From: Maricaulis sp.
GTDB taxonomy: Bacteria; Pseudomonadota; Alphaproteobacteria; Caulobacterales; Maricaulaceae
Strand: one strand, 5' to 3'
Length of the DNA: 64,000 nucleotides
Assembly (NCBI RefSeq): GCF_017643585.1
Contig: NZ_JAEPND010000001.1
Each line of letters starts with the position of its first letter. Position 1 is the first letter of the stretch. This document shows positions 18,836 to 62,332 of the stretch, piece after piece. Under the pieces are notes generated by a model. It was not told the origin of the DNA. It saw only the letters and a list, made by a program, of their open reading frames with translations, and did not search any database. The position numbers were made by a program, and so were the translations under genes.

Positions 18836-19180
18836 ATGACTAACCGCTTGAGTATATCCGGTTTCTCGGCGCTATCGCACCCGGTTCGACTGGCCCTGTT
18901 CCAGACGCTGTGCCAGCGCGCGCCCGACACCGTTTCGGCAGGCGAGCTCGCAAGCGGGTTCGACATTCCTCCTTCGACGATGACCGGTCATCTCCAGGCC
19001 CTTGAACGCGCCGGCTTGATCCGCTCGCAGCGTCGCTCGCGCTTCATGCTCTATTCTCTGGATCACGAAGGAACCCGCCAATTCCTCAAATTCCTGATCC
19101 AGGATTGCTGTGGCGACCAGCCTCAACTGGTACAGGGCATTGTCGGCGCTGCCGAGAGCGCACTCCAGGAAGCCTCATGA
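18836..19180 (+). CDS. arsR: ArsR/SmtB-family metalloregulator
   Basis: wHTH core LSHPVRLALFQTL...AGELA...STMTGHLQALERAGLI. Translationally coupled (ATGA) to arsC. Confidence 0.85.
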   Translation: MTNRLSISGFSALSHPVRLALFQTLCQRAPDTVSAGELASGFDIPPSTMTGHLQALERAGLIRSQRRSRFMLYSLDHEGTRQFLKFLIQDCCGDQPQLVQGIVGAAESALQEAS

Positions 19181-19674
19181 CATCGCGTCCTCTCTCGGTG
19201 CTGATCCTGTGCACCGGCAATTCTGCGCGCTCAATCCTCGCCGAAGCCTTGCTGAACAAAATCGGAGGCGATCGCTTTCTCGCGCTGTCGGCCGGCTCGC
19301 AGCCCAAGGGCGAGGTGCACCCTGCTGCGCTGGAGCTGCTGGCAGAGCGGGGTTTCGAGACAGGACATTTCCGCTCCAAGAGCTGGGACGAGTTCGACGA
19401 CAACAGTTTCGGTGGGCAGCTCGATTTCATTTTCACGGTCTGTGACAGCGCCGCAGCCGAAACCTGCCCCGTCTGGCCTGGCCACCCGATGACCGTGCAC
19501 TGGGGCATTCCCGACCCGGCTGCGGTTGAAACGCCCGGCCCGCAACAGCGCAGGGCTTTCGAAATCGCGTTTGATCAGCTTAAACAGCGTATCGAGGCCT
19601 TCGCGGCGATCGACAATCTCGATCCGCGACGCGACGGGCTCAAGGCCGAGCTCCAGGCGATCGGCCGCCTCTAG
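19177..19674 (+). CDS. arsC: arsenate reductase, LMW-PTP (thioredoxin-coupled) type
   Basis: P-loop LCTGNSARS (CX5R-S) and a downstream Cys in DSAAAETCPVWPG. ATG 19177 overlaps the arsR stop. Confidence 0.9.
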   Translation: MTSRPLSVLILCTGNSARSILAEALLNKIGGDRFLALSAGSQPKGEVHPAALELLAERGFETGHFRSKSWDEFDDNSFGGQLDFIFTVCDSAAAETCPVWPGHPMTVHWGIPDPAAVETPGPQQRRAFEIAFDQLKQRIEAFAAIDNLDPRRDGLKAELQAIGRL

Positions 19675-19688
19675 GGGACGTTGTTGAG

Positions 19689-20330
19689 ATGTTTGCGCGT
19701 GCACTTGCCGAAACCATCGGGACATTCTTCCTGCTCGTGGCCGTCATTGGCAGTGGCATCATGGCCGAGAGCCTGACGAATGATACCGCCCTTGCCCTGC
19801 TTGCGAATGCCATCGCGACCGGGGCCGCCCTCGTGGTGTTGATCACGACACTGGGGCCCGTCTCGGGTGCACATTTCAACCCCGCGGTCTCGATCGTCAT
19901 GTTCCTGCGCGGCGCTCTGAAGCCGGCCGAGCTGGTCCTGTTCATCGCCTGCCAGGTTCTGGCAGGCCTTGTCGCAGTCATGGCGACGCATTTCATGTTC
20001 GAACAGAGCCTGATCCAGATCTCGACGACCTCTCGGACAGGTTTGGCGCAATACGGATCGGAATTCCTGGCGACATTTGGCCTGGTCTTCTTCATCCTGC
20101 TGGGCATCCGTCACAATGCCGGTGCCGTGCCCTGGATTGTCGGCCTCTACATCACCGGGGCGTACTGGTTCACTTCGTCAACCAGCTTTGCCAACCCGGC
20201 TGTCACCATTGCGCGCAGCTTCACGGACACGTTTTCCGGCATCAATCCGAGCCATATGCCGATGTTCATCATCACGCAGCTGCTCGGGGCCGTCGTCGCC
20301 TGGCTGATCGCCAAACCACTGACCCGCTAG
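19689..20330 (+). CDS. aqpS: MIP-family aquaglyceroporin (AqpS-like arsenite channel)
   Basis: Two NPA boxes (HFNPAVS, FANPAVT) and 6 TM helices. Third gene of the ars module. Confidence 0.8.
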   Translation: MFARALAETIGTFFLLVAVIGSGIMAESLTNDTALALLANAIATGAALVVLITTLGPVSGAHFNPAVSIVMFLRGALKPAELVLFIACQVLAGLVAVMATHFMFEQSLIQISTTSRTGLAQYGSEFLATFGLVFFILLGIRHNAGAVPWIVGLYITGAYWFTSSTSFANPAVTIARSFTDTFSGINPSHMPMFIITQLLGAVVAWLIAKPLTR

Positions 20331-21171: not shown

Positions 21172-24100
21172 TTAGAACGGGACGCTGACGCCAACAGAGA
21201 CGCCCGTGCGGTCGATCACTTCGCGACCCTCTTCGGTGAAGGCACCGAGGCTGAGGGTTGCGCCCGTTTCGAACTCACGTTCGATGCTGACAGAGATCTC
21301 GTACCAGACCTCATCAACGTCGATCGACTCAGTCGTGCCGAAGCTGACATTCGGCGCGCCCTGGAACGAGGCGGAATAGGCTTCCGACTCAGCACCAAAG
21401 TCAGACGCCACACCGAGATAGAGCACCGGACGCAGGCCGGCGATATTCGTCTCGGCGCTGAAGTGCGCGCCCATGCGAGCGATCAGGCTGTCCGAGGAAC
21501 GGGCATCGATATTGGCACCCGGGATCGCCTGTGCAGTCGTCGCATCGTAATCGAACTCGGTCGATACGAGGCTGGCCGTCGGCACGATCTGGTAGGCCGC
21601 ACCGGCATCGGTCAGACGATAGTCCGCAACCACGCCAAGGCTGGTGGCGTCGCCCTCGAGATCAGACGCGATTACAGATGACATGCCGCCCATCACAACC
21701 GTGCGCTGCGCGTCCGTTTCGCTGCTTGCGAAGCTGTAGAAGCCGGAGACACCGAAACGCTCGGTCTGATAACCGCCGAAGAGGCTGAACTGCGTCGTCG
21801 AGGTTTCGCTGGAGATCGAGTTGAGGATGCTCGGGCTGTCCATGTCCGTGCTGGCCATACCGACAGCAGCACCAACGGACCAACCGGAGTCGAAGGTGGC
21901 TTCAAGACCGAACAGCGAGAACTCGCCATCCAGATCCGTGGAGCCCGTACCGTAGGTCAGGTCGACATCACCGCTGACATAACCCACTTCACCGAAGGCG
22001 CGCAGACCCGGCTGCGACGCTTCCATGTCACCACCATGATTGTGGCGGAACAGCATCTTGGCACCGGAAGCTGCCAGCGGGCTGGCAACACCGTCAGCCT
22101 GCAGTTCTGCAGACTGCACTGCAACCGCGATCTCGGCTGCGCTGGAACCGCCGCTATTGCGAATCTGGCCCATCAGGGCTGCATTCAGTGTGTCCGTGTG
22201 AGAACGCAGAGAGCGATCGAACATCACGGATTCGAACGGCGTCAGTGACGTCAACGCATCCGCCAGATCATCACCCGACAACAGGTCGAGCGGACCGAAA
22301 ATATCGGCCAGTGCGGCGTAGTCGGTGTCACGTGCATTGTCCAGTGCATTGCCGAGGCTGGCCTGGAACAGGTTGGTATAGGTGGTCTGGGTCGAGAACG
22401 ATTCCGCCGTCAGCTCCAGCGTCGCCTGACCACCTGCCAGCGTCACGACCGGACGCAGAACACCCGGAAGATCCATCACGCTGGCAAAACCACCAATGAT
22501 CGAGTTGGCGTTCAGGAAGACATAGCTGTCGCCATAGCGCGGCAGGTATCCAGCCAGCGGGTTGAACACCAGCAAACCATCCAGCGACGCATCGCCGGTG
22601 ATATTGAGCATGGACGAACCAGCCCCATCAACATTGATGACCAGCGAACCTGCGCTGGACTGAACGTAGTCACCCCAGAGATCAAGCGTGCCGGTTGCCG
22701 TTTCGGAACCCGGCAGGACCGCACCACCGATATTCCACATCGTCATGGTGTTGAGGGTGCCGGTACCCATCAGCATGCCGCCCGTCATCATGTATTCGCG
22801 GGCATTCACGCGACCGTTCAGGTCTACGATGCCTGCAGACTGATTGAATGAAATCAGCGTGTTGAATGTCCAATCAGCGCCAATATCGAAACGAGCCTCG
22901 GCATTTGCAACGGACATCGTGTCGAGTTCGACATTCATGTCCAGGGTGGTTGTACCCGCATTCGAAAGGGTGACATTGAAGAAGCGCGCGACGCTGGAGC
23001 TCGGATCATTGAATGTACCGAATGTTCCGTAGTGGTTGTTCGGAACCCAGGTCCCCGGATCCAGGTTGGACGCAACACCGGTGACACCGTCCTGGGAGAC
23101 CGTAACGCCACCGAAATTGGCTGCGAGGTCGACATCTTGGACCTGGACATCGGTCAGCTTAGAGCCCGCATCACCGTTAGGTGAAACGCTGCCATCCTGG
23201 ACCTGGACATTGGTGCCCTTGCCGGTCTGGCCCGGCAGGTCGATCGTGCCGCGGAAATCGATATCCATCAGCGTGGCCGCCGTGGACAGTTCTTCGGCTG
23301 TGGACTCCTGCGGAGCAGCCGTAGCGCGATGCGCATTGACCTCGGTGTCGAAAATGGTTCCGAACGCACCGTCCGTGGTCGTCATCGCGTCCAGCGCGCT
23401 TGTCGGCGCCGTCGTTGACAGGCCATTGACCGCATTGCCGTTCTCATCAAGTACGAAATAGTTCGGATCCAACGTCTGTTGCCAGCGCGACGCGTCAGAC
23501 CAGACACCATCACCTTCGGCGGCAGAAGCGTAGACGTACGGGTTCTGGGCAACGATCCAGTTCTGATACAGGAAAAGCGGGTTGTAATAGCTCAGATCAC
23601 CGTAACCACCGTTCGGGCTGGTAAAGGTCCAACCACCTGACAACACGCCCAGGATCAGGTTCTGACCTCCAAAGTTGGAGAACAGAGCGCCGCCAGAGTC
23701 ACCACCAGCCGTGCCGGCCTCGCGATCGGTCGCATCTCCCGGGAACCAGTCCATATGGTCGCCGACAGAGATCGCCGAGGTGAAATCGAACGTGATCGGA
23801 TTCGTGAAAGGAGGTGTCGTACATGTGATGTCGCTGGCACCCAGGAATGCCGGCCCACGAGTACAATCGTTCGGATTGCGATCCGGGCGGTCGAAGTCTG
23901 TGTGGTACATCATCTGCGAGCCTGAAGGCCCGACAAGCCCAGACCACGAGCCAGGCGCGATACCGAAGGTCGCCGTAAGGAAATCATCCTGGGAAATCAG
24001 TGCGTCAACCATGTTCTCGCCCGCACGGCGCTTCCAGTCGATGCCACCAATCGGGCCGGTAGAACCGGTACCGTTGCCGCCATAACCGACCATGTCCACG

Positions 24101-24618
24101 TGACGCGCTTCGGTGATTGCGGAGAACAGCATACCATAGGTCGGCAGGCCGATTGCCGGCGTGTCTAGGGTCGCCATGGCGACGTCTGCACCCGGGAAGG
24201 AAAAACCAGTGTCCAAGACAGTCTGATATTGCAGGACATTATAAACATGCATGTCCGGATTGGACTGGAAGCTGTTGGCAAACCAGTTCTGGAATCCCGG
24301 CAAAGCGTCGACGCCGAAGCTGAATGCCATCGGGATTGATCCGAAAGTGCCATACTGATCATTCGGCGCATTATCCGCGCAGTGCGCCGCGAAGATCACT
24401 GTGCGGGCATTAACCAGCTGTCCGGTACAGACAAAACCACCCGCGAACATCATGCCGACACCGGACCAGGTGTTTTCGGTATCAACCATACCGTCTGTAC
24501 CAACATCATCACGCCCCGGCAGGGCATGAGCCGCGCTCGCCGCCATGGCCAGGATCGCGGCGGATGCTGTAACATTGAGTGCGCGCTTGAATGCACGCCC
24601 GAAATTCTTCTGAGACAT
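21172..24618 (-). CDS. autotransporter with trypsin-like (S1) serine-protease passenger domain
   Basis: Signal peptide ending AHA. Catalytic His in VIFAAHC (His codon 24382-24384), Asp candidate in GADVAMATL, Ser in GGDSGGALF (Ser codon 23695-23697). Long Gly/Thr/Asn-rich passenger and a C-terminal beta-barrel ending ...VGVSVPF. ATG 24618 follows GGGGGAGA. Confidence 0.85.
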   Translation of the reverse strand: MSQKNFGRAFKRALNVTASAAILAMAASAAHALPGRDDVGTDGMVDTENTWSGVGMMFAGGFVCTGQLVNARTVIFAAHCADNAPNDQYGTFGSIPMAFSFGVDALPGFQNWFANSFQSNPDMHVYNVLQYQTVLDTGFSFPGADVAMATLDTPAIGLPTYGMLFSAITEARHVDMVGYGGNGTGSTGPIGGIDWKRRAGENMVDALISQDDFLTATFGIAPGSWSGLVGPSGSQMMYHTDFDRPDRNPNDCTRGPAFLGASDITCTTPPFTNPITFDFTSAISVGDHMDWFPGDATDREAGTAGGDSGGALFSNFGGQNLILGVLSGGWTFTSPNGGYGDLSYYNPLFLYQNWIVAQNPYVYASAAEGDGVWSDASRWQQTLDPNYFVLDENGNAVNGLSTTAPTSALDAMTTTDGAFGTIFDTEVNAHRATAAPQESTAEELSTAATLMDIDFRGTIDLPGQTGKGTNVQVQDGSVSPNGDAGSKLTDVQVQDVDLAANFGGVTVSQDGVTGVASNLDPGTWVPNNHYGTFGTFNDPSSSVARFFNVTLSNAGTTTLDMNVELDTMSVANAEARFDIGADWTFNTLISFNQSAGIVDLNGRVNAREYMMTGGMLMGTGTLNTMTMWNIGGAVLPGSETATGTLDLWGDYVQSSAGSLVINVDGAGSSMLNITGDASLDGLLVFNPLAGYLPRYGDSYVFLNANSIIGGFASVMDLPGVLRPVVTLAGGQATLELTAESFSTQTTYTNLFQASLGNALDNARDTDYAALADIFGPLDLLSGDDLADALTSLTPFESVMFDRSLRSHTDTLNAALMGQIRNSGGSSAAEIAVAVQSAELQADGVASPLAASGAKMLFRHNHGGDMEASQPGLRAFGEVGYVSGDVDLTYGTGSTDLDGEFSLFGLEATFDSGWSVGAAVGMASTDMDSPSILNSISSETSTTQFSLFGGYQTERFGVSGFYSFASSETDAQRTVVMGGMSSVIASDLEGDATSLGVVADYRLTDAGAAYQIVPTASLVSTEFDYDATTAQAIPGANIDARSSDSLIARMGAHFSAETNIAGLRPVLYLGVASDFGAESEAYSASFQGAPNVSFGTTESIDVDEVWYEISVSIEREFETGATLSLGAFTEEGREVIDRTGVSVGVSVPF

Positions 24619-24954
24619 GGATCTCCCCCTTGTAAGAACCGGTGTTGGACGAAGTCTTAGTCCATTTCGCAGTCGCTGTAGAACTGATTTTTCAAATGCC
24701 GCAACTGGAAATTGATGCATATCGATATTTCCAAACACGTAGCACTGCGGCGCATTCGTCAACCCTTGCGGGCGGCTTGTCACACATCTCCTCGCAAACC
24801 GTTGTCCCAAAGCAACGGTCCGTCAGTGAGACGGCATGACAAGCTTGCAAGATGCCGCGCCACCGCCTCGACACAGGCTGCCAGCCGTATTAAGTGACCC
24901 GCAAATATCTTGCCCAATCCGGGCCAAGCTTAGAACATCAGGGGAGAGACGCGC

Positions 24955-43471: not shown

Positions 43472-44614
43472 ATGCGCGCCTATCTGATTGCAGCATCCAC
43501 GCTTGCCGTTGCTGCCTGCCAACAAGACCAACACGTTGCGCCGACCAATGTTGTCGATGCCTTGACCCCGTATTACGCGCAGCTGGAAGTCGAACGACCC
43601 CAAGCGCCAGTCGGGGCTGGCGAGCCGACAGCGGACGCGTTGCTGGAAACCGTGTTCTTCGGCTCCTGCCATAGCGGCGACCGCCCGCTCGGCATTCTTG
43701 ATACGATCTCCGCTCAGCAGGGCGACCTGTTCATCTATACGGGCGACAACGTCTATGGCGATGCCTATTCGTGGGATGCCACCCTGCCGGAATTACGCGA
43801 AGCCTACGCAACGCTCGCGGCCGCTGAGCCCTTCCAGAATCTGCGCCAGTCCACCCCGATGCTCGCGACATGGGATGACCACGATTACGGAATGAATGAT
43901 TTTGGTCGCGAATTTCCGTTCAAGGGCTTTGCCGAAGAGCTGTTTCTGGAATTCTGGGGCGTTTCTGATGATGATGAGCGCCGCTCTCGACCTGGGATCT
44001 ACACCAGTCGGACCTATGGTCCGGACGGACAGCGTGTACAGGTGATCCTGCTGGACACGCGTTACTTCCGCGGCGCCCTGGCCCGGACACCTGAACGCAA
44101 CGCGGTGGGCATGGAGCGCTACGTTCCGACGGAGGACACCCGGGTATCCATGCTGGGTGAAGACCAGTGGGCCTGGCTTGCCGAGGTTTTGCAGGAACCC
44201 GCAGACCTACGCCTGGTCATCTCATCAATCCAGGTCCTTGCCGACGGTCATGGCTGGGAGGCCTGGCGCACCATGCCGCACGAACGACAGCGTTTCTATG
44301 ACACGATTACCGAGTCTGGCGCTGAAGGCGTGGTATTGGTGTCCGGCGATCGGCATTCCGCTGGTCTCTATGTGCGTGAAGACGTGATCGATTATCCGTT
44401 GTACGAGATCACATCATCTGCCCTGAACATGTCCTATCGCGACGAGAATAATGAGCCCGGCCCCAACCGGATCGGCGATATGTACGCGCCCGCCAATTTT
44501 GGCGCCATCTCGGTCGACTGGGACAATCGGAGCCTGTCCCTGGAAATCCGTGATGATGCAGGGCAGACCGTGCGCCAGCAGCGCGTCGAACTGGACGACC
44601 TCACGCGCAACTGA
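43472..44614 (+). CDS. PhoD-like alkaline phosphatase / metallophosphoesterase lipoprotein
   Basis: Lipobox LAVAAC, and metallophosphatase motifs YTGDNVYGD, TWDDHDYGMND and VLVSGDRH. Confidence 0.7.
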   Translation: MRAYLIAASTLAVAACQQDQHVAPTNVVDALTPYYAQLEVERPQAPVGAGEPTADALLETVFFGSCHSGDRPLGILDTISAQQGDLFIYTGDNVYGDAYSWDATLPELREAYATLAAAEPFQNLRQSTPMLATWDDHDYGMNDFGREFPFKGFAEELFLEFWGVSDDDERRSRPGIYTSRTYGPDGQRVQVILLDTRYFRGALARTPERNAVGMERYVPTEDTRVSMLGEDQWAWLAEVLQEPADLRLVISSIQVLADGHGWEAWRTMPHERQRFYDTITESGAEGVVLVSGDRHSAGLYVREDVIDYPLYEITSSALNMSYRDENNEPGPNRIGDMYAPANFGAISVDWDNRSLSLEIRDDAGQTVRQQRVELDDLTRN

Positions 44615-44761
44615 CGCGAGGCTGACATTCGATAACGCGATGGTGACGCAGCGTCGGGGGGACGTTACTGGAATTTTATCTTCTGCACAGCGTAATAGAT
44701 CGGTGTCAGGTCGGGCTCTCCTGTCCCCCCGCTCGACCTCTCAACAAGGAGACACTGAGAG

Positions 44762-45049
44762 ATGAAAACCGAAACCAAACTCGCTGCCGTCGCGTCGACC
44801 GCCCTGGCCCTCTCCCTCGCATCGGCCGCTGCCCATGCAGCCACCACGTCTGCCGAGGAAATGGAACAGTGCTACGGCGTTTCACTGGCCGGCGAAAACG
44901 ACTGTGCTGCGGGTCCGGGTACGTCCTGCGCGGGCACCTCGACCGTCGATTATCAGGGCAATGCCTGGACTTATGTTCCGGAAGGCACCTGCGAAAGCAT
45001 CCAGACCCCGTACGGCACAGGCTCCCTCGAGCCAGTTGAACGTCCGTAA
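44762..45049 (+). CDS. bufA1: DUF2282 / BufA1-type bufferin precursor peptide (secreted 4-Cys RiPP)
   Basis: 95 aa. Sec signal peptide ending AAAHA, then [26 protein letters not shown]...[10 protein letters not shown] with Cys at residues 37, 48, 56 and 77. Immediately upstream of a DUF692 gene. Confidence 0.85.
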
Positions 45050-45059
45050 AGTGTCTCAG

Positions 45060-45090
45060 CCCTGGCGCGCATCCCCCCATCGCGCCAGGG
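45060..45090 (+). promoter_or_regulatory. strong intercistronic hairpin between precursor and maturase genes
   Basis: Perfect 10-bp GC-rich stem CCCTGGCGCG (45060-45069) / CGCGCCAGGG (45081-45090) with an 11-nt loop and no U-tract, inside the 51-nt bufA-bufB spacer. Confidence 0.5.
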
Positions 45091-45100
45091 TCCCTGCCTG

Positions 45101-45952
45101 ATGCAAAGACTCCCCGACACCGCCGGACTGGGCCTCAAGCCCGAGCATTTCAGGCAAGCCCTGGACTGTGCCAAGGACGGTATCTGGTTTGAAGTGCATC
45201 CTGAAAACTACATGGCCGAAGGCGGCCCGCGATTGCAGTGGCTGGACGCATTTGCGGAGCGCTTCCCGCTTTCCCTGCACGGCGTTGGCCTGTCACTGGG
45301 TGGCCTCGAGCCGCCCGACCGCGAACATCTGAAGCGCTGGAAACAGCTGATCACGCGCTACCGGCCTGACGCGATTTCCGAACACCTCGCCTGGACGAGC
45401 CATCAGGGCACGCACTTCAACGACCTGCTGCCCGTGCCGGCAACCCAGGCGGCCCTTGATCGCTTTGTTGAGCATGTGACCATCATGCAGGACACGCTGG
45501 ATCGGCAGGTTCTGATTGAAAACCCGTCGGTTTACGTGGCTCTCAAGTCAGACATGACCGAAATCGACTTCCTGCGAGAAACCGTTGCCAGAACCGGATG
45601 CGGCTTGTTGCTGGACGTCAATAATGTCCATGTCAGCTGCCACAATCTGGGGCTCGATCCGATCGCCTATCTGGATGCAGTGCCCCATGACGCAGTGGGC
45701 GAAATTCATATTGCCGGCCATGAAGAAGACGCTGCACTGGGGGGCGAACTGCTGATCGACACCCATGGCGCGCCGATCGTCGAGACGGTCTGGTCATTGC
45801 TCGATTATGCCCTGGCGCTGACCGGGCCCCGACCTGTTCTGATCGAACGTGATACCAATATCCCCGCCTTTGACGATTTGCTCGACGATCGACGGCGCGC
45901 GCAGACCTGTATTGATGCTGCGCCAGCCCGGAGGGCCGCTCATGTCTGCTGA
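45101..45952 (+). CDS. bufB: DUF692 / MNIO-family (MbnB-like) RiPP maturase
   Basis: GLGLKPEHF, WFEVHPENYM, PLSLHGVGLSLG, ISEHLAW, LIENPSVY, LLLDVNNVHVS and HIAGH are the DUF692 TIM-barrel blocks. Confidence 0.9.
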   Translation: MQRLPDTAGLGLKPEHFRQALDCAKDGIWFEVHPENYMAEGGPRLQWLDAFAERFPLSLHGVGLSLGGLEPPDREHLKRWKQLITRYRPDAISEHLAWTSHQGTHFNDLLPVPATQAALDRFVEHVTIMQDTLDRQVLIENPSVYVALKSDMTEIDFLRETVARTGCGLLLDVNNVHVSCHNLGLDPIAYLDAVPHDAVGEIHIAGHEEDAALGGELLIDTHGAPIVETVWSLLDYALALTGPRPVLIERDTNIPAFDDLLDDRRRAQTCIDAAPARRAAHVC

Positions 45953-46697
45953 ATTCAACCAGGCGTTCGCAGACACACTTCTGGGACGCGACGACCGGAA
46001 TCTACTGGCGCACCTCGCCAACCCTGATCACGCCCGGCGTCTCAACGTCTATCGCAACAATGTGACCCGAGCCGCCATCGAGGCATTGCGCGCGGCTTAC
46101 CCGGCCGTGAACCGGATAGCCGGCGCCAACTTCTTTTCACCCATGGCGCGGCAATACTGGCTCAACCATCCGCCATCCAGCGCGTCCCTGACGCTGTACG
46201 GGCACGATTTCGCGGGTCATGTGGCCCGGTACGATCCGGCGCGCGCCCTGCCCTATCTTCCTGCAATTGCCCAACTCGACCGGGCCTGGCTGGAAGCACA
46301 TCATTCAGCAAATGATCCTGTCCTGACCGCGACCGACATCGCCAGCTTCGAACCTGAAAGCTTGCCGTCCCTCGCCCCGGGCCTGTCCGCCAGCGTTCGT
46401 CTGGTCCAGCTGGATGTCGCCGTGCACGCCGTCTGGCAGGCCAATCGCCAGGCTGAACCTGACCCGCAACCGCGGATCGAGCCTGGCCCTCAATCAGTCC
46501 TGGTCTGGCGCCACCAGGGCGTTGTGCAATCCATGCCGCTCCCGCCCCAGCACTTTGCCTTTCTGGACCAGCTTGAACGCGGAGCCTCTTTGCAGGCCGC
46601 CATTGAAGCAGCCACCATCCCTGATCCCGCCGCCATTGATCCGGCGCAGTTTTTCTCCCACGGTCTCAGCCACGGCGTATTTGCCGCGAGCCGCTAA
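45942..46697 (+). CDS. bufC: DUF2063 partner protein of the MNIO enzyme (BufC-like)
   Basis: RLNVYRNNVTRAAIEALRAAYPAVNRIAGANFF is the DUF2063 N-terminal signature. ATG 45942 overlaps bufB by 11 nt. Confidence 0.8.
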   Translation: MSAEFNQAFADTLLGRDDRNLLAHLANPDHARRLNVYRNNVTRAAIEALRAAYPAVNRIAGANFFSPMARQYWLNHPPSSASLTLYGHDFAGHVARYDPARALPYLPAIAQLDRAWLEAHHSANDPVLTATDIASFEPESLPSLAPGLSASVRLVQLDVAVHAVWQANRQAEPDPQPRIEPGPQSVLVWRHQGVVQSMPLPPQHFAFLDQLERGASLQAAIEAATIPDPAAIDPAQFFSHGLSHGVFAASR

Positions 46698-46712
46698 GAA
46701 GAAAGCCACATC

Positions 46713-47252
46713 ATGTCTTCATTCCTTGTCCGGGCTCACGGCCTTTATGTCAGCGTTTTCAACGCGGTTGAAAAAACCCTGGGAGGCGACCTGCTGGCCC
46801 TGCTGGCGCGCTTCACCCTGGCCGGAGTGTTCTGGCGCTCGCTCCTGACCAAGGTCGAAACGGTCAAGCTTTTCAAATACACCGAGTACATCAATGACTT
46901 CCCGGTCGAGCGCGCGCATGTCCGCCTGCCCGCCTTCCCCCTCGAGATCCGCCCCGCCACCTATCATCAGTTCAACGGGGATTTTGCCTTGCCGCTGCTG
47001 TCGGGCGAGTTCGCAGCGCTGCTGGCGACATTGGGAGAGTTCATCCTGCCGCTCTTGCTGGTGTTTGGCGTTTTGACCCGTTTCGCCGCTGCGGCACTGC
47101 TGGTGATGACGCTGGTCATCCAGATTTTCGTTTATCCCGAAGCCTGGTGGGGCACACATGCCCTGTGGGCCGTGATGTGTCTCTATCTCATGTCCAAAGG
47201 GCCGGGACGCCTGTCTTTCGACCACATGCTGAGAAATAGATTCGCCTCATAG
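46713..47252 (+). CDS. DoxX-family membrane protein (fourth gene of bufferin operons)
   Basis: 4 TM helices, LARFTLAGVFWRS and a C-terminal KGPGRLSFDHML (GxGxxSxD) DoxX signature. Confidence 0.8.
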   Translation: MSSFLVRAHGLYVSVFNAVEKTLGGDLLALLARFTLAGVFWRSLLTKVETVKLFKYTEYINDFPVERAHVRLPAFPLEIRPATYHQFNGDFALPLLSGEFAALLATLGEFILPLLLVFGVLTRFAAAALLVMTLVIQIFVYPEAWWGTHALWAVMCLYLMSKGPGRLSFDHMLRNRFAS

Positions 47253-47312
47253 GCTTAAGCGGTTGCGCCTTACCGCCCGAGGCGCCATTTTGTTCCCTGC
47301 GGATGGGGATCC

Positions 47313-47320
47313 GGGGGGGG
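47313..47320 (+). repeat. G8 homopolymer in the SD position of the second DoxX-like gene
   Basis: CCGGGGGGGGTAATGATG: eight consecutive G at 47313-47320, 2 nt upstream of ATG 47323. Confidence 0.9.
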
Positions 47321-47322
47321 TA

Positions 47323-47772
47323 ATGATGAACAAGGTCTCGGTCGTGAAGACCCAGATTGCAAGCAAACCTGAGCGTTTCATGCCGGACTGGGTTCTGGGA
47401 CTGATCGTCCGCCTGTCTGTTGTTCCGGGTCTGTGGAGCTGGGGTCGCGCCAATGCCGGTGATGACTGGCTGGACGTGTCTCCAGAGATCATCTCCGCTG
47501 TTGGATACTGGCAGATCCCGCTGCTTCCGGACGCCCTGATCGCCCAGATCGCAGTCTGGGGCGCACACCTGACAGCCTTGACCCTTTTGCTCGGATTTCT
47601 CAGCCGGATTGTCGGCTTCGTTCTGGTGCTGGCTGGCGGGGTTTACATCTTCTGGGTCGCACCGGGCGCCTGGCAATCCGCAATCGTGTTCGAGGCGGTC
47701 GCCTTCTATCTCTTTGCCCGCGGCAGCGGCGCACTCTCGATCGACGGTGCCCTGGCGGCAACCGCTCGCTAG
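47323..47772 (+). CDS. second DoxX-like membrane protein
   Basis: 149 aa, 4 TM helices, C-terminal RGSGALSIDGAL (GxGxxSxD). Co-directional, 70 nt after the first DoxX gene. Confidence 0.55.
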   Translation: MMNKVSVVKTQIASKPERFMPDWVLGLIVRLSVVPGLWSWGRANAGDDWLDVSPEIISAVGYWQIPLLPDALIAQIAVWGAHLTALTLLLGFLSRIVGFVLVLAGGVYIFWVAPGAWQSAIVFEAVAFYLFARGSGALSIDGALAATAR

Positions 47773-47881
47773 ACAGCGACCAGCGACCGCGCAATCGCGT
47801 TTGCGAATTACTGTTTCTCAACCAATGCCGTTAAAGGCTATGAATTAGCCCCTCGCGCAAGGTCAGGAGAGCGTCGGCCGC

Positions 47882-49267
47882 ATGTCGCCCGATCTCAAAC
47901 AGAAACTCAAAAAGGCCCTCGCCGGCAAAGCGGCCGTCGAGATGGGTCAGTTCCAGTTCGTGAACCTGGACGAGATTCGTTCCCAGGCCGGGGATGAGTG
48001 GCCGGAAATCCGTGACAAGACGTATGAGGTCTCTGGCCATTTCATTGAAAAACGCCTCGCCGATGACGACGTGCTCATTCGTTGCCAGGGCGGGTTCCTG
48101 ATCATTTTCTCGCAGATGGGCGGGGTCGAGGCCGAAGCTCATGTCGAGGAAATCAACGATGAGCTGAACGAGTTTTTCCTCGGAAAGGACTGGTTGGAAA
48201 AACTGCGCTCCGAAGCCGAAGCGCGGCGGGTCCCGACCGATGAATTCCTGAGCATCGTCGCTCGCACACAGGCCGAGGACAGCGTGGAAACGCGCCAGGC
48301 CCGCCCCGAACCGGAGCAGACCAAGGAAGCGGCCGAAGAAGCCGCGGCCGGCTGGGAGAAAAAGACCGAGACCACGGACGGACCCAAGGGCCCCAAGGGA
48401 GGGCGCTGGGAGAAAACAACGCACGCAAAAGCCCGATCCGGTGATGAGGGCGCGCTGGACTGGCCCGAGGAAGCCTATGAGGCGAAGGCCTGGGATGACA
48501 TCATTTTCCAGCCCGTCTGGGATAGCCGCAACAACGCCGTGCTGCACCATGTCTGCCAGGCCCGCCGATCGGTGGGTGATCGCCATGTCTACGGGCGCGA
48601 CACACTGATGGGTATCGACGAGGCCGAGGCCTTGCGCGGACTTGATCGCGAGGTCGCGCTTGCCGCGCAACGCGGATTCCAGACTGTGTTTGCCCAGGGC
48701 GGCAAGTGCGCAATCACCATTCCGGTCCACTACGAGACCTTGTCGGCCGTATCACACCGAATGGAATATTTCTCGATCCTGCAGGCCGTACCCAAACCGA
48801 TCCGGAAATATTTCCAGATCCGCGTCGACTCGGTGCCCTCGGGAGCACCCGTGACCCAGATGCAGGAAGTTTTCCGCTCGATGCGCCACTTCGGGTCCGA
48901 CATCCTCGCCGAGATCGGCTACACCACCAAATGGGACCTGACACGTTTTGAAGGGTGCGGGATCAGCGTTTTCGGCTCGGCCCTGCCCCAGACAGCAAGC
49001 TTGCGGGAACCTGACGATGATGCGGTGATGGGCTTCATGCAGCTCGTCACGCAGGCCCGGGCGCTGCAGGGCGAAGCCTTCCTGAACAATCTGGGCAATC
49101 CGGAATTGCTGAACGCCGCCATTTCAGCAGGGATACGGCTGTTTTCCGGGCCGACAATCGCGGCGGACGAAGACGAACCCCAACCGGCACGCGCGCTCGA
49201 TTTCGCCGGTATCGCCAATCGTCTGCACAAACCCGACCCGGATCCAGACATCCGTGTAATCGACTGA
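47882..49267 (+). CDS. degenerate GGDEF-like / EAL-like two-domain protein (possible c-di-GMP effector)
   Basis: N-terminal [10 protein letters not shown] sits where RxGGDEF is expected. The C-terminal half starts [23 protein letters not shown] (EAL replaced) and keeps EAL-fold spacing without catalytic residues. An acidic/Lys-rich linker joins the halves. Confidence 0.45.
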
Positions 49268-60656: not shown

Positions 60657-61589
60657 TCAGCCCTGACCGCGTGGATGGGCCTTGTCGTAGAGCTTGAGCA
60701 GGTTGTCGGTATCGACCTCGGCATAGACTTGTGTCGTGGACAGGCTGGCATGGCCCAGCAACTCCTGGATCGCGCGCAGGTCGCCACCATGCGCAAGGAG
60801 GTGCGTGGCAAAAGCGTGGCGTAGCGCGTGCGGTGTCGCGCTCGGTGCGAGACCCAGTGCAAGGCGCATCTCCTCGACCAGTTTCTGGACCGGTCGCGGC
60901 CCCAGCGCGCCACCGCGAACACCTCGAAACAACGCAGCTTCGGGCGCGAGGTCGAAGGGGGCGAGCGCGACGTATTTCTCCACGGCTGCGGCGACATTGG
61001 GCAGCACGGGTACCAGCCGGATCTTTCCCCCCTTGCCCGTGACCCGCAATGCGTCGCCCAATACCCGGTCTCGACCGGTCAGAGACAACGCTTCAGAGAT
61101 CCGCAGCCCGCACCCGTAAAGCAGCAGCAACACCGCCACATCCCGCGCCGCGACCCAGTCGGGCACATCACGCTCACCGACCTGTTCCATCAAGTCGCGC
61201 GCGGCGGCCTCGCTGACAGGCTTGGGTTTGGAGCGCGGAACCTTGGGCAGTTCGACAAGCAGAAGCGCAGAATTCGAGACACCCCAGCGACGTTCCAGAT
61301 AGGTGTAGAAGGATCGCAGGGCGGACATTTCCCGGGCCAGCGACCGGGCAGCCAGGCCCGTCTTGCGCCGAGCCGCCATGAAAGCGCGGAAATCACGCGC
61401 ACCGACCTCGCCCAGCGTCCGCACGGATACCGCCTCACCGAGATGCCCGGCGAGGAAGCCCAGAAAGCCGGAAATATCGCGTTGATAGGCGTCCACCGTC
61501 TTCAGGCTCAGCCGACGCTCGCCCGTGAGATGCTGAAGAAAGGTCTGCAGCGCGTCGCCCGCGCTCGTTTTCAGCGCTGATGCATCCAT
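60657..61589 (-). CDS. xerC: site-specific tyrosine recombinase XerC
   Basis: Catalytic set R...HALRHAFATHLL...GHASLSTTQVY. Located directly downstream of a DUF484 gene (the yigA-xerC arrangement). Confidence 0.8.
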   Translation of the reverse strand: MDASALKTSAGDALQTFLQHLTGERRLSLKTVDAYQRDISGFLGFLAGHLGEAVSVRTLGEVGARDFRAFMAARRKTGLAARSLAREMSALRSFYTYLERRWGVSNSALLLVELPKVPRSKPKPVSEAAARDLMEQVGERDVPDWVAARDVAVLLLLYGCGLRISEALSLTGRDRVLGDALRVTGKGGKIRLVPVLPNVAAAVEKYVALAPFDLAPEAALFRGVRGGALGPRPVQKLVEEMRLALGLAPSATPHALRHAFATHLLAHGGDLRAIQELLGHASLSTTQVYAEVDTDNLLKLYDKAHPRGQG

Positions 61590-62257
61590 TGCACGATCAG
61601 TCGCTCGGTTACGCGGGCGAGGAAGTTGAGCAGCTCCGTCCCCTGCCCGAACTGGAACAGGTGCGGATCCCGCGCCGCCAGTGCGAACAGGCCGTCATGA
61701 CCATGAAAGTCCAGGCGGACGATAGCCTGTGACCGCATGCGCGCACCTTGCTGACCGTAGATTTCATGCGCCCGCTCGGCATCTACCGGCCCGAGCAATT
61801 CCACCCGTTCGCCCATGACACTCGACACCATGCCCTCGGACGCGCCCAGAATGGACTCCGCCGACTTGAGCGGCGCATGCCCCTCGATCAGCACGCGGCA
61901 GACATCCACCCCCAGCGCGCCTGTCAGGCGGCTGGAGATTTTCCGATCCAGCCCTGCAAGACTATCGACTTCAAGCAGGCCCAGCACAGCCGCATGGATC
62001 TGCGACTGGATTGCCAGATTGGCGCGGGCCGTCTCGACGATGCCCTCGTTCAGCGCCTTGTACTGACGGAGCTCACCGACCAGCTTTTCGCGCGCGGCAT
62101 TGCCGATATCGATCACACCCTCGGTCGACGGGCTCTCGGTGACACGGGCAAAGAGCTCGGCGTCCTCGCGGACGAAATCCGGATTGCGCATCAGGAACTC
62201 CCGGATCGTCTCGATATCGAGCTGGCCGGACCGGGTTTCGTCAGTGGTCGTGGACAT
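61571..62257 (-). CDS. DUF484 (YigA-like, GAF-type) protein
   Basis: IREFLMRNPDFV N-terminus. Overlaps the xerC start by 19 nt. ATG 62257. Confidence 0.7.
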   Translation of the reverse strand: MSTTTDETRSGQLDIETIREFLMRNPDFVREDAELFARVTESPSTEGVIDIGNAAREKLVGELRQYKALNEGIVETARANLAIQSQIHAAVLGLLEVDSLAGLDRKISSRLTGALGVDVCRVLIEGHAPLKSAESILGASEGMVSSVMGERVELLGPVDAERAHEIYGQQGARMRSQAIVRLDFHGHDGLFALAARDPHLFQFGQGTELLNFLARVTERLIVQWMHQR

Positions 62258-62332
62258 AGGCTTTGCCTCTTCTGGCGCTGACGGGCAATTTGAGGGCCCG
62301 TACAAACCGAATCATTTCTGACATTCTGCCCT

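Follow-up and report, generated by a model that had tools for sequence, protein, structure and literature searches.

Bufferins, first described in 2024 (Leprevost et al. 2024, PMC11626156), are RiPPs, peptides that ribosomes make and that are modified after translation. We describe here a bufferin-like locus in a 64,000-nucleotide stretch of the Maricaulis sp. genome (contig NZ_JAEPND010000001.1, assembly GCF_017643585.1), hereafter the window. The closest described system is buf1ABCD of Caulobacter vibrioides (CCNA_03363-03366), which encodes a four-Cys DUF2282 precursor carrying a Sec signal (BufA1), a multinuclear non-heme iron oxidase (MNIO; BufB1), a DUF2063 protein (BufC1) and a DoxX protein (BufD1) (PMC11626156). 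BufB1 and BufC1 are necessary and sufficient for conversion of the two central Cys residues of BufA1 to 5-thiooxazoles; the outer two are disulfide-bonded, and the overall mass shift is -10 Da (PMC11626156). After export by Sec and cleavage by signal peptidase, the resulting periplasmic peptide binds Cu(I)/Cu(II) and is copper-protective; BufD1 is dispensable both for modification and for the phenotype (PMC11626156).

Thousands of Buf1 (DUF2282) clusters are known (PMC12452194). They form part of a wider class now named captophorins, with more than 20,000 clusters in RefSeq, whose characterised members all bind copper (PMC13097082). Cupriavidus metallidurans and Legionella pneumophila have operons of the Buf1 type, named gig (gold-induced genes), with the same four-gene make-up and the DUF2282 family (PMC11626156, PMC12452194). 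HvfABC(X)/oxazolin of Haemophilus influenzae and fontiphorin/gonophorin likewise combine an MNIO with a DUF2063-type partner (plus DoxX/HvfX) to place 5-thiooxazoles at Cys residues of a secreted copper-binding peptide (PMC13097082). In methanobactin synthesis (MbnABC), a homologous MNIO with the same iron-ligand set acts with a partner protein, and a Cys-derived heterocycle binds copper. Methanobactin differs in that MbnA is short, leader-dependent and exported by a dedicated exporter as a secreted chalkophore, and in its oxazolone/thioamide chemistry.

A probable Buf1-type cassette in Maricaulis

Five open reading frames were found on the plus strand of the window, in agreement with the frames, coordinates, strand and 11-nt overlap of the DUF692 and DUF2063 genes listed in an earlier note on this DNA. 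The first four (44762-47252) very probably constitute a canonical Buf1-type bufferin (captophorin) cassette, bufABCD, with a copper-peptide mechanism as in Caulobacter, and the fifth would be a separate resident gene.

44762-45049, plus strand: bufA, BufA1/DUF2282 precursor, 95 aa (Pfam PF10048)
44762-44839, plus strand: predicted Sec signal peptide of BufA, residues 1-26 (by inspection; cleavage between AHA and A)
45101-45952, plus strand: bufB, MNIO (DUF692) bufferin maturase, 283 aa (NCBIfam and Pfam; starts 51 nt after bufA)
45942-46697, plus strand: bufC, DUF2063/HvfC-BufC partner, 251 aa (Pfam DUF2063; 11-nt overlap with bufB)
46713-47252, plus strand: bufD, DoxX-family membrane protein, 179 aa (Pfam DoxX; last gene of the cassette)
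47323-47772, plus strand: gene 5, divergent DoxX-superfamily membrane protein, 149 aa (Pfam DoxD/DoxX; profile-profile comparison)

Profile searches, which the earlier note had proposed, placed genes 1-4 above the Pfam cutoffs for DUF2282, DUF692/MNIO, DUF2063 and DoxX, respectively, and the matches were far above chance by the curated cutoffs of Pfam and NCBIfam. BufA matched DUF2282 (PF10048) with an E-value of 8e-26 and 90.2 bits (cutoff 22.4), and 51 of the 53 profile positions were aligned. Its four Cys residues (Cys37, Cys48, Cys56 and Cys77) were invariant in an alignment of 20 sequences with cores about 70-90% identical. By inspection, the N-terminus shows the n/h/c layout of a signal peptide: MKTETK, a 16-residue hydrophobic stretch, and AAHA followed by Ala at the predicted cleavage site, leaving a mature core of 69 aa. 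BufA has at least 7994 homologues, which some sources name the BufA1 family. Sequence comparison of BufA with the PDB gave chance-level matches only.

BufB passed the NCBIfam equivalog model 'MNIO family bufferin maturase' (NF050167, MNIO_BufB) with 358.9 bits against a cutoff of 310, and matched the Pfam family MbnB_TglH_ChrH with an E-value of 1e-99. In the PDB, BufB matched 3BWW (2e-45) and MbnB (7DZ9, 3e-16). The three iron ions of MbnB are held by H54, H90, E133, D163, N166, H192, D208, H210 and E239 (PMC9060507). All nine positions are matched in BufB, by H60, H95, E140, D172, N175, H203, D220, H222 and E249, a correspondence taken from the pairwise alignments with 3BWW and MbnB and from motif order.

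The 251-aa length of BufC is counted from the ATG chosen in the earlier note. BufC matched DUF2063 (E-value 4e-21, 75.5 bits, cutoff 27.2) and showed a weak sequence match to NGO1945_C (17.7 bits, cutoff 27); comparison by sequence with the PDB gave chance-level matches only. An AlphaFold2 (AF2) model of BufC had a predicted local distance difference test score (pLDDT) of 94.1 and a predicted template modelling (TM) score (pTM) of 0.90. Its best PDB folds were TglI (8hci_A, TM 0.64), an MNIO partner, and NGO1945 (3dee, TM 0.54/0.65), the founding DUF2063 structure. The profile match, the model and its fold matches together fit a DUF2063 partner with a C-terminal domain resembling a RiPP recognition element. 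Homologues at NCBI are named 'HvfC/BufC family peptide modification chaperone'. The 11-nt overlap of bufB and bufC suggests translational coupling.

BufD matched DoxX with an E-value of 2.5e-13 and 50.9 bits (cutoff 23.6). A related protein (P0176) is the fourth gene product of a sigma-linked bufABCD operon elsewhere. On an unrelated metagenome contig (L046, 587-3791), a Caulobacter-like arrangement was seen, with a divergent extracytoplasmic function (ECF) sigma gene beside bufABCD and a BufD of 163 aa; this sigma-linked layout contrasts with the sigma-less Maricaulis locus.

Each sequence feature by which a Buf1 cluster is defined and which can be tested here was present (PMC11626156, PMC12452194), and the locus was therefore assigned as a Buf1 cluster, as the earlier note had claimed. 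Gene order and families are identical to those of C. vibrioides buf1ABCD, the central and outer Cys pairs are kept, and the BufB equivalog is passed. The Maricaulis locus is unlike buf1ABCD in that it has no adjacent sigF/nrsF and no SigF-type motif, carrying another conserved upstream box, and in the separate gene for a distant DoxX paralogue that follows downstream. The C. vibrioides system has been characterised and the gig operons respond to gold or copper, whereas the Maricaulis locus is known from sequence alone. BufB, BufC and BufD matched the NCBIfam models HvfB, HvfC and HvfX below threshold, and the Hvf equivalog cutoffs were not reached. Hvf, fontiphorin and gonophorin precursors carry EGKCG-type repeats, whereas BufA has the four-Cys DUF2282 fold. 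The match of BufB to the MbnB model was 55 bits against a cutoff of 325.

The earlier note had expected routine annotation to report five hypothetical or DUF genes. This did not hold, given the BufB equivalog match and the bufferin names already carried by Maricaulis orthologues at NCBI and UniRef ('BufA1 family periplasmic bufferin-type metallophore', and the chaperone name above for BufC). Pfam itself labels PF10048 'BufA1' and PF09836 'HvfC_N'. Older records read 'DUF2282 domain-containing', 'DNA-binding domain-containing' and 'TQO small subunit DoxD'. Identical or near-identical copies of the locus were found in several marine metagenome assemblies and one metagenome-assembled genome (MAG), and all relatives bearing names were Maricaulis. 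Looking up two proteins (P0009 and P0156) by exact sequence returned no record.

The locus is a further uncharacterised bufferin cluster of an architecture already known. The periplasmic copper-binding RiPPs to which it belongs are a very large class, defined only recently, and one more such member from a stalked marine alphaproteobacterium would on its own be routine. It is useful to the bufferin field for the natural presence and absence of bufABCD at one fixed chromosomal site among Maricaulis species, for a BufD-like paralogue that outlives the cassette, and for a conserved non-SigF upstream box together with a conserved hairpin after the precursor gene. These leads bear on bufferin regulation and on the unexplained role of DoxX.

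Proposed mechanism

By analogy with C. vibrioides, the primary product of bufA would be a precursor of 95 aa bearing a Sec signal peptide. BufB, an iron enzyme, would then use O2 in the cytoplasm to convert the central Cys48 and Cys56 to 5-thiooxazoles, with BufC holding BufB on its substrate. Modified BufA would then be exported by Sec and cleaved by signal peptidase after Ala26, and Cys37 and Cys77 would form a disulfide. The resulting 69-residue periplasmic mini-protein is predicted to chelate Cu(I)/Cu(II) and to buffer copper stress, with BufD (DoxX) as a presumed accessory membrane protein. Signals at the locus suggest that bufA transcription begins near a cassette-specific box about 130 nt upstream and not at a SigF-type promoter, that a hairpin 3' of bufA may favour the precursor transcript, and that the bufB/bufC overlap may couple translation.

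Gene 5 persists without the cassette

The earlier note had described gene 5 as a second DoxX-like protein. Its distant homology to BufD stood, with a probability of 99.4% in hhalign against BufD-like proteins (E-value 9e-22, 138 columns); its DoxX profile score fell under the cutoff (17.4 bits, cutoff 23.6). The score for DoxD was 23.8 bits (cutoff 22.7), and pairwise identity to BufD was 29% over 97 aa (E-value 8e-5). The borderline Pfam scores together with the hhalign result make homology between gene 5 and BufD clear, but not membership of a subfamily. The gene 5 family is small: a search of 1.84 billion representatives gave 53 relatives at E<=1e-3. Matches outside its own clade, P0176 among them, were more BufD-like than gene-5-like. 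Gene callers differed on its start even on identical contigs, choosing the ATG (149 aa) or a TTG 33 nt upstream (160 aa).

A scan of species-representative genomes with a narrow gene-5 alignment, whose reach is confined to Maricaulis, returned 28 loci, all Maricaulis. In all 28, as far as the contig extends, gene 5 was followed by an orthologue of a 461-aa protein gene and then by sucC. The bufABCD genes lay directly 5' of gene 5 in 21 of these genomes and were absent in the other 7. Gene 5 without bufABCD was seen in M. maris contigs, in M. maris DSM 4734, in M. virginensis and in four other genomes. In the outgroup locus L016, a 176-aa gene-5 homologue directly follows PhoD, and no buf genes are present. 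Gene 5 was thus not seen to be gained or lost together with bufABC in the loci compared.

The region between bufD and gene 5 contains the following motif.

47263-47291, plus strand: promoter-like motif of gene 5, TTGCGC, 17-nt spacer, CATTTT (conserved in aligned loci)

The general form, TTGC-N19-CAT (TTGCnn, 17 nt, CATnnT), showed no variation across 13 aligned loci, of which 4 lack buf, and was found 5' of gene 5 in all 30 loci inspected, the outgroup included. These comparisons suggest that gene 5 is most likely a resident neighbour with its own transcription and not an obligate buf component. The earlier note had proposed a five-gene architecture with an extra DoxX-like gene; since gene 5 is kept without bufABCD and has a promoter-like motif of its own, the locus is better described as a standard four-gene bufABCD beside a resident gene, and no new architecture is called for.

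Presence and absence of the cassette in Maricaulis

Across the 28 genomes, bufABCD behaved as a unit: 21 have it and 7 do not, and gene 5, the 461-aa gene and sucC keep their places either way. In a rough neighbour-joining tree of sucC, five of the buf-less genomes formed a basal clade, and the other two (L026 and L040) were nested among genomes with buf, which indicates at least two secondary losses. Weak remnants of BufD, at the expected position and strand, were detected by tblastn only in L026 (E-value 0.056) and L040 (E-value 0.023). The retained string TTCGCGCGnTAGG could be the 3' end of bufD or the upstream region of gene 5; its origin is ambiguous because a similar string occurs in the basal buf-less clade, and the event in that clade can therefore be read as either gain or loss.

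The M. maris type-strain contig (L026, DSM 4734) has no bufABCD at the site, and an MAG labelled M. maris (L027) has it; the presence of the cassette thus varies between very close lineages. For M. maris, proteins of the BufA1 family are on record as well (P0036).

Candidate regulatory signals of the cassette

Three signals were found around bufA.

44633-44671, plus strand: conserved upstream box TAACGCGATGGTGACGCAGCGTCGGGGGGACGTTACTGG (17-locus alignment)
44746-44752, plus strand: ribosome-binding site AAGGAGA, about 10 nt 5' of the bufA ATG (read from the sequence)
45059-45091, plus strand: GC-rich stem-loop (GCCCTGGCGCG...CGCGCCAGGGT) in the 51-nt bufA-bufB spacer (folding)

The invariant positions of the upstream box form a dyad, TnAC-N6-GTnA, followed 15-16 nt on by a third element, CGTnAnTnG. 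Together with the ribosome-binding site, whose GGAG was invariant, the box accounted for the sole invariant non-coding columns of the 17-locus upstream alignment. The pattern occurred once in the window and in none of 100 shuffles. It was found 125-135 nt 5' of bufA in 19 of 21 Maricaulis loci with buf, 3 of them outside the set from which it was derived, and in none of 8 loci without buf. The box travels with the cassette. It could be an operator, an alternative-sigma (non-sigma-70) promoter of bufA, or both.

The published SigF motif (GTAACC-N16-CGAA; PMC3511200), searched with up to 2 mismatches, had no match upstream of bufA, and its 51 matches in the window were about the number expected from shuffles. 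In gene tables of identical contigs and in Pfam scans, no sigma, anti-sigma/NrsF, copper-regulator or copper-homeostasis gene was found in the window, which bears out the earlier statement that the cluster lacks an adjacent sigma/anti-sigma or copper regulator. Only some Buf1 clusters have accompanying sigma/anti-sigma genes, which define a subtype (PMC12452194), so the missing pair is not unusual. On the searches above, the Maricaulis locus falls outside this SigF/NrsF-regulated (Caulobacter-type) subtype. An Rfam search of 44300-48100 (E<=1) returned no riboswitch or known RNA.

The stem-loop between bufA and bufB has 11+2 bp and a dG of -23.6 kcal/mol (z -3.77); none of 200 shuffles was equally stable, and no U-run follows it. 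Nearly all of 22 loci (the window and 21 genomes) have a hairpin at this position, the stems being unrelated in sequence; in 16 of the 22 the stem is uninterrupted over at least 8 bp. In RiPP operons, structures 3' of the precursor gene increase the ratio of precursor to enzyme transcript. The bufA-bufB hairpin is a candidate stabiliser or attenuator that may set this ratio.

Alternative readings of the locus

One alternative is a five-gene bufferin variant in which gene 5 is a second specialised DoxX subunit, co-transcribed with the cassette and acting with BufD and the bufferin, for example in a hetero-oligomeric membrane oxidoreductase. Gene 5 lies on the same strand 70 nt 3' of bufD, and the two genes are neighbours in 21 of 28 Maricaulis species. 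The homology of gene 5 to BufD-type DoxX proteins spans the full length, and its nearest relatives beyond its own small clade are BufD-like proteins. However, an intact gene 5 stands in place in the 7 genomes without bufABCD, in M. maris and, directly after PhoD, in the outgroup; the promoter-like motif precedes it with or without buf; its adjacency to the 461-aa gene is more constant than that to buf; and even BufD is dispensable in Caulobacter (PMC11626156). Such a variant is improbable. A related question is whether the buf transcript ends before gene 5. A hairpin at 47265-47285, 13 nt past the bufD stop codon, was flagged as terminator-like by a consensus scan and, with the CATTTTG that follows, might be an intrinsic terminator ending the buf transcript, outside any gene-5 promoter. 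The hairpin sits inside the spacer of the gene-5 motif, however, and its T-run, of just four T's, is confined to the window and L020, the closest relative of the window. Elsewhere the stem is missing or different, while TTGC-N19-CAT is invariant. The scan also reported 10 such sites against 4.8 ± 2.4 in shuffles, which makes single matches weak evidence. The terminator reading was downgraded on the unconserved T-run and the conserved overlapping motif and is now rather doubtful, though promoter and terminator readings of the 47263-47291 region are not mutually exclusive.

Several points weigh against our preferred reading of a four-gene copper-peptide cassette beside a resident gene 5. Thiooxazole chemistry, export, metal binding and expression are all carried over from Caulobacter and its relatives. 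The BufA signal peptide was assigned by eye alone, and the AF2 model of BufA, built from an alignment of 20 close homologues, was poor (pLDDT 44). The upstream box and the gene-5 promoter are read from motifs in the DNA. Occasional read-through from bufD may reach gene 5, which is on the same strand across a 70-nt gap, and a functional link is possible given its homology to BufD and its position next to bufD in 21 of 28 species. The modified peptide might also serve mainly against another metal or against oxidative or sulfur stress, under a regulator unlike that of Caulobacter. The missing SigF-type motif upstream of bufA, the lack of sigma/NrsF or copper genes in the window and the cassette-specific dyad-containing box in their stead are consistent with such a role, and the literature records induction of homologous operons by gold, chromium and cadmium as well as possible functions with other metals (PMC3511200, PMC12452194). 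Against this, the BufA core is highly conserved and typical of Buf1, the characterised members of the class bind copper without exception (PMC13097082), and what the product does can hardly be judged from the lack of a linked regulator. We therefore consider a mainly non-copper role unlikely.

The preferred reading, in which gene 5 is a resident beside bufABCD, leaves room for a further, tentative proposal. Gene 5 may have founded a small BufD-derived DoxX subfamily, confined almost entirely to Maricaulis and a few relatives, that is transcribed on its own and kept when the bufferin genes are deleted; in parallel, the box TnAC-N6-GTnA...CGTnAnTnG may mark a regulator that this lineage uses in place of SigF/NrsF. 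Were the proposal for gene 5 to hold, a DoxX protein of the BufD type would have a cellular job independent of bufferins, and gene 5 would offer a handle on the role of DoxX in bufferin clusters.

Neighbouring genes

The window is ordinary chromosome, with sdh, mdh, sucCDAB, lpd, a TonB receptor gene, an ars-like operon and a xerC-like recombinase gene. Two genes flank the locus.

43472-44614, plus strand: PhoD-like phosphatase with a lipoprotein-type N-terminus (…LAVAAC), directly 5' of bufA
47882-49267, plus strand: 461-aa protein (no Pfam or NCBIfam match)

Only some Maricaulis lineages have PhoD 5' of buf, and in the outgroup it stands immediately before the gene-5 homologue; it is therefore taken as backbone and not as part of the cassette. 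An orthologue of the 461-aa gene lies directly 3' of gene 5 in the Maricaulis loci examined, where the contig reaches that far, and the gene is tandemly duplicated in L031, L036-L039, L041 and L043-L045. In one M. maris sequence (L009, AP027270.1, 8502-9301), an insertion sequence element with a DDE_Tnp_1 transposase lies between the gene-5 and 461-aa-gene orthologues. Between sucC and sucD, some contigs that are otherwise near-identical have additional sequence (L001 11476-12117, a 213-aa open reading frame; L003 11467-11870), which is missing from the window.

Farther from the locus, the genes listed for an identical contig (L014) suggest that the ars-like operon (about 18836-20330, plus strand) encodes a regulator of the ArsR type (HTH_20), an arsenate reductase (LMWPc) and a channel of the MIP family. 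The minus strand encodes, at 21172-24810, a large autotransporter (about 1150-1210 aa) that faintly matched a trypsin-like passenger domain. At 60657-62305 (minus strand), the gene of a XerC/XerD-like tyrosine recombinase (Phage_integrase with a SAM-like N-terminal domain) and a DUF484 gene overlap; the arrangement resembles the common housekeeping pair and not a mobile element.

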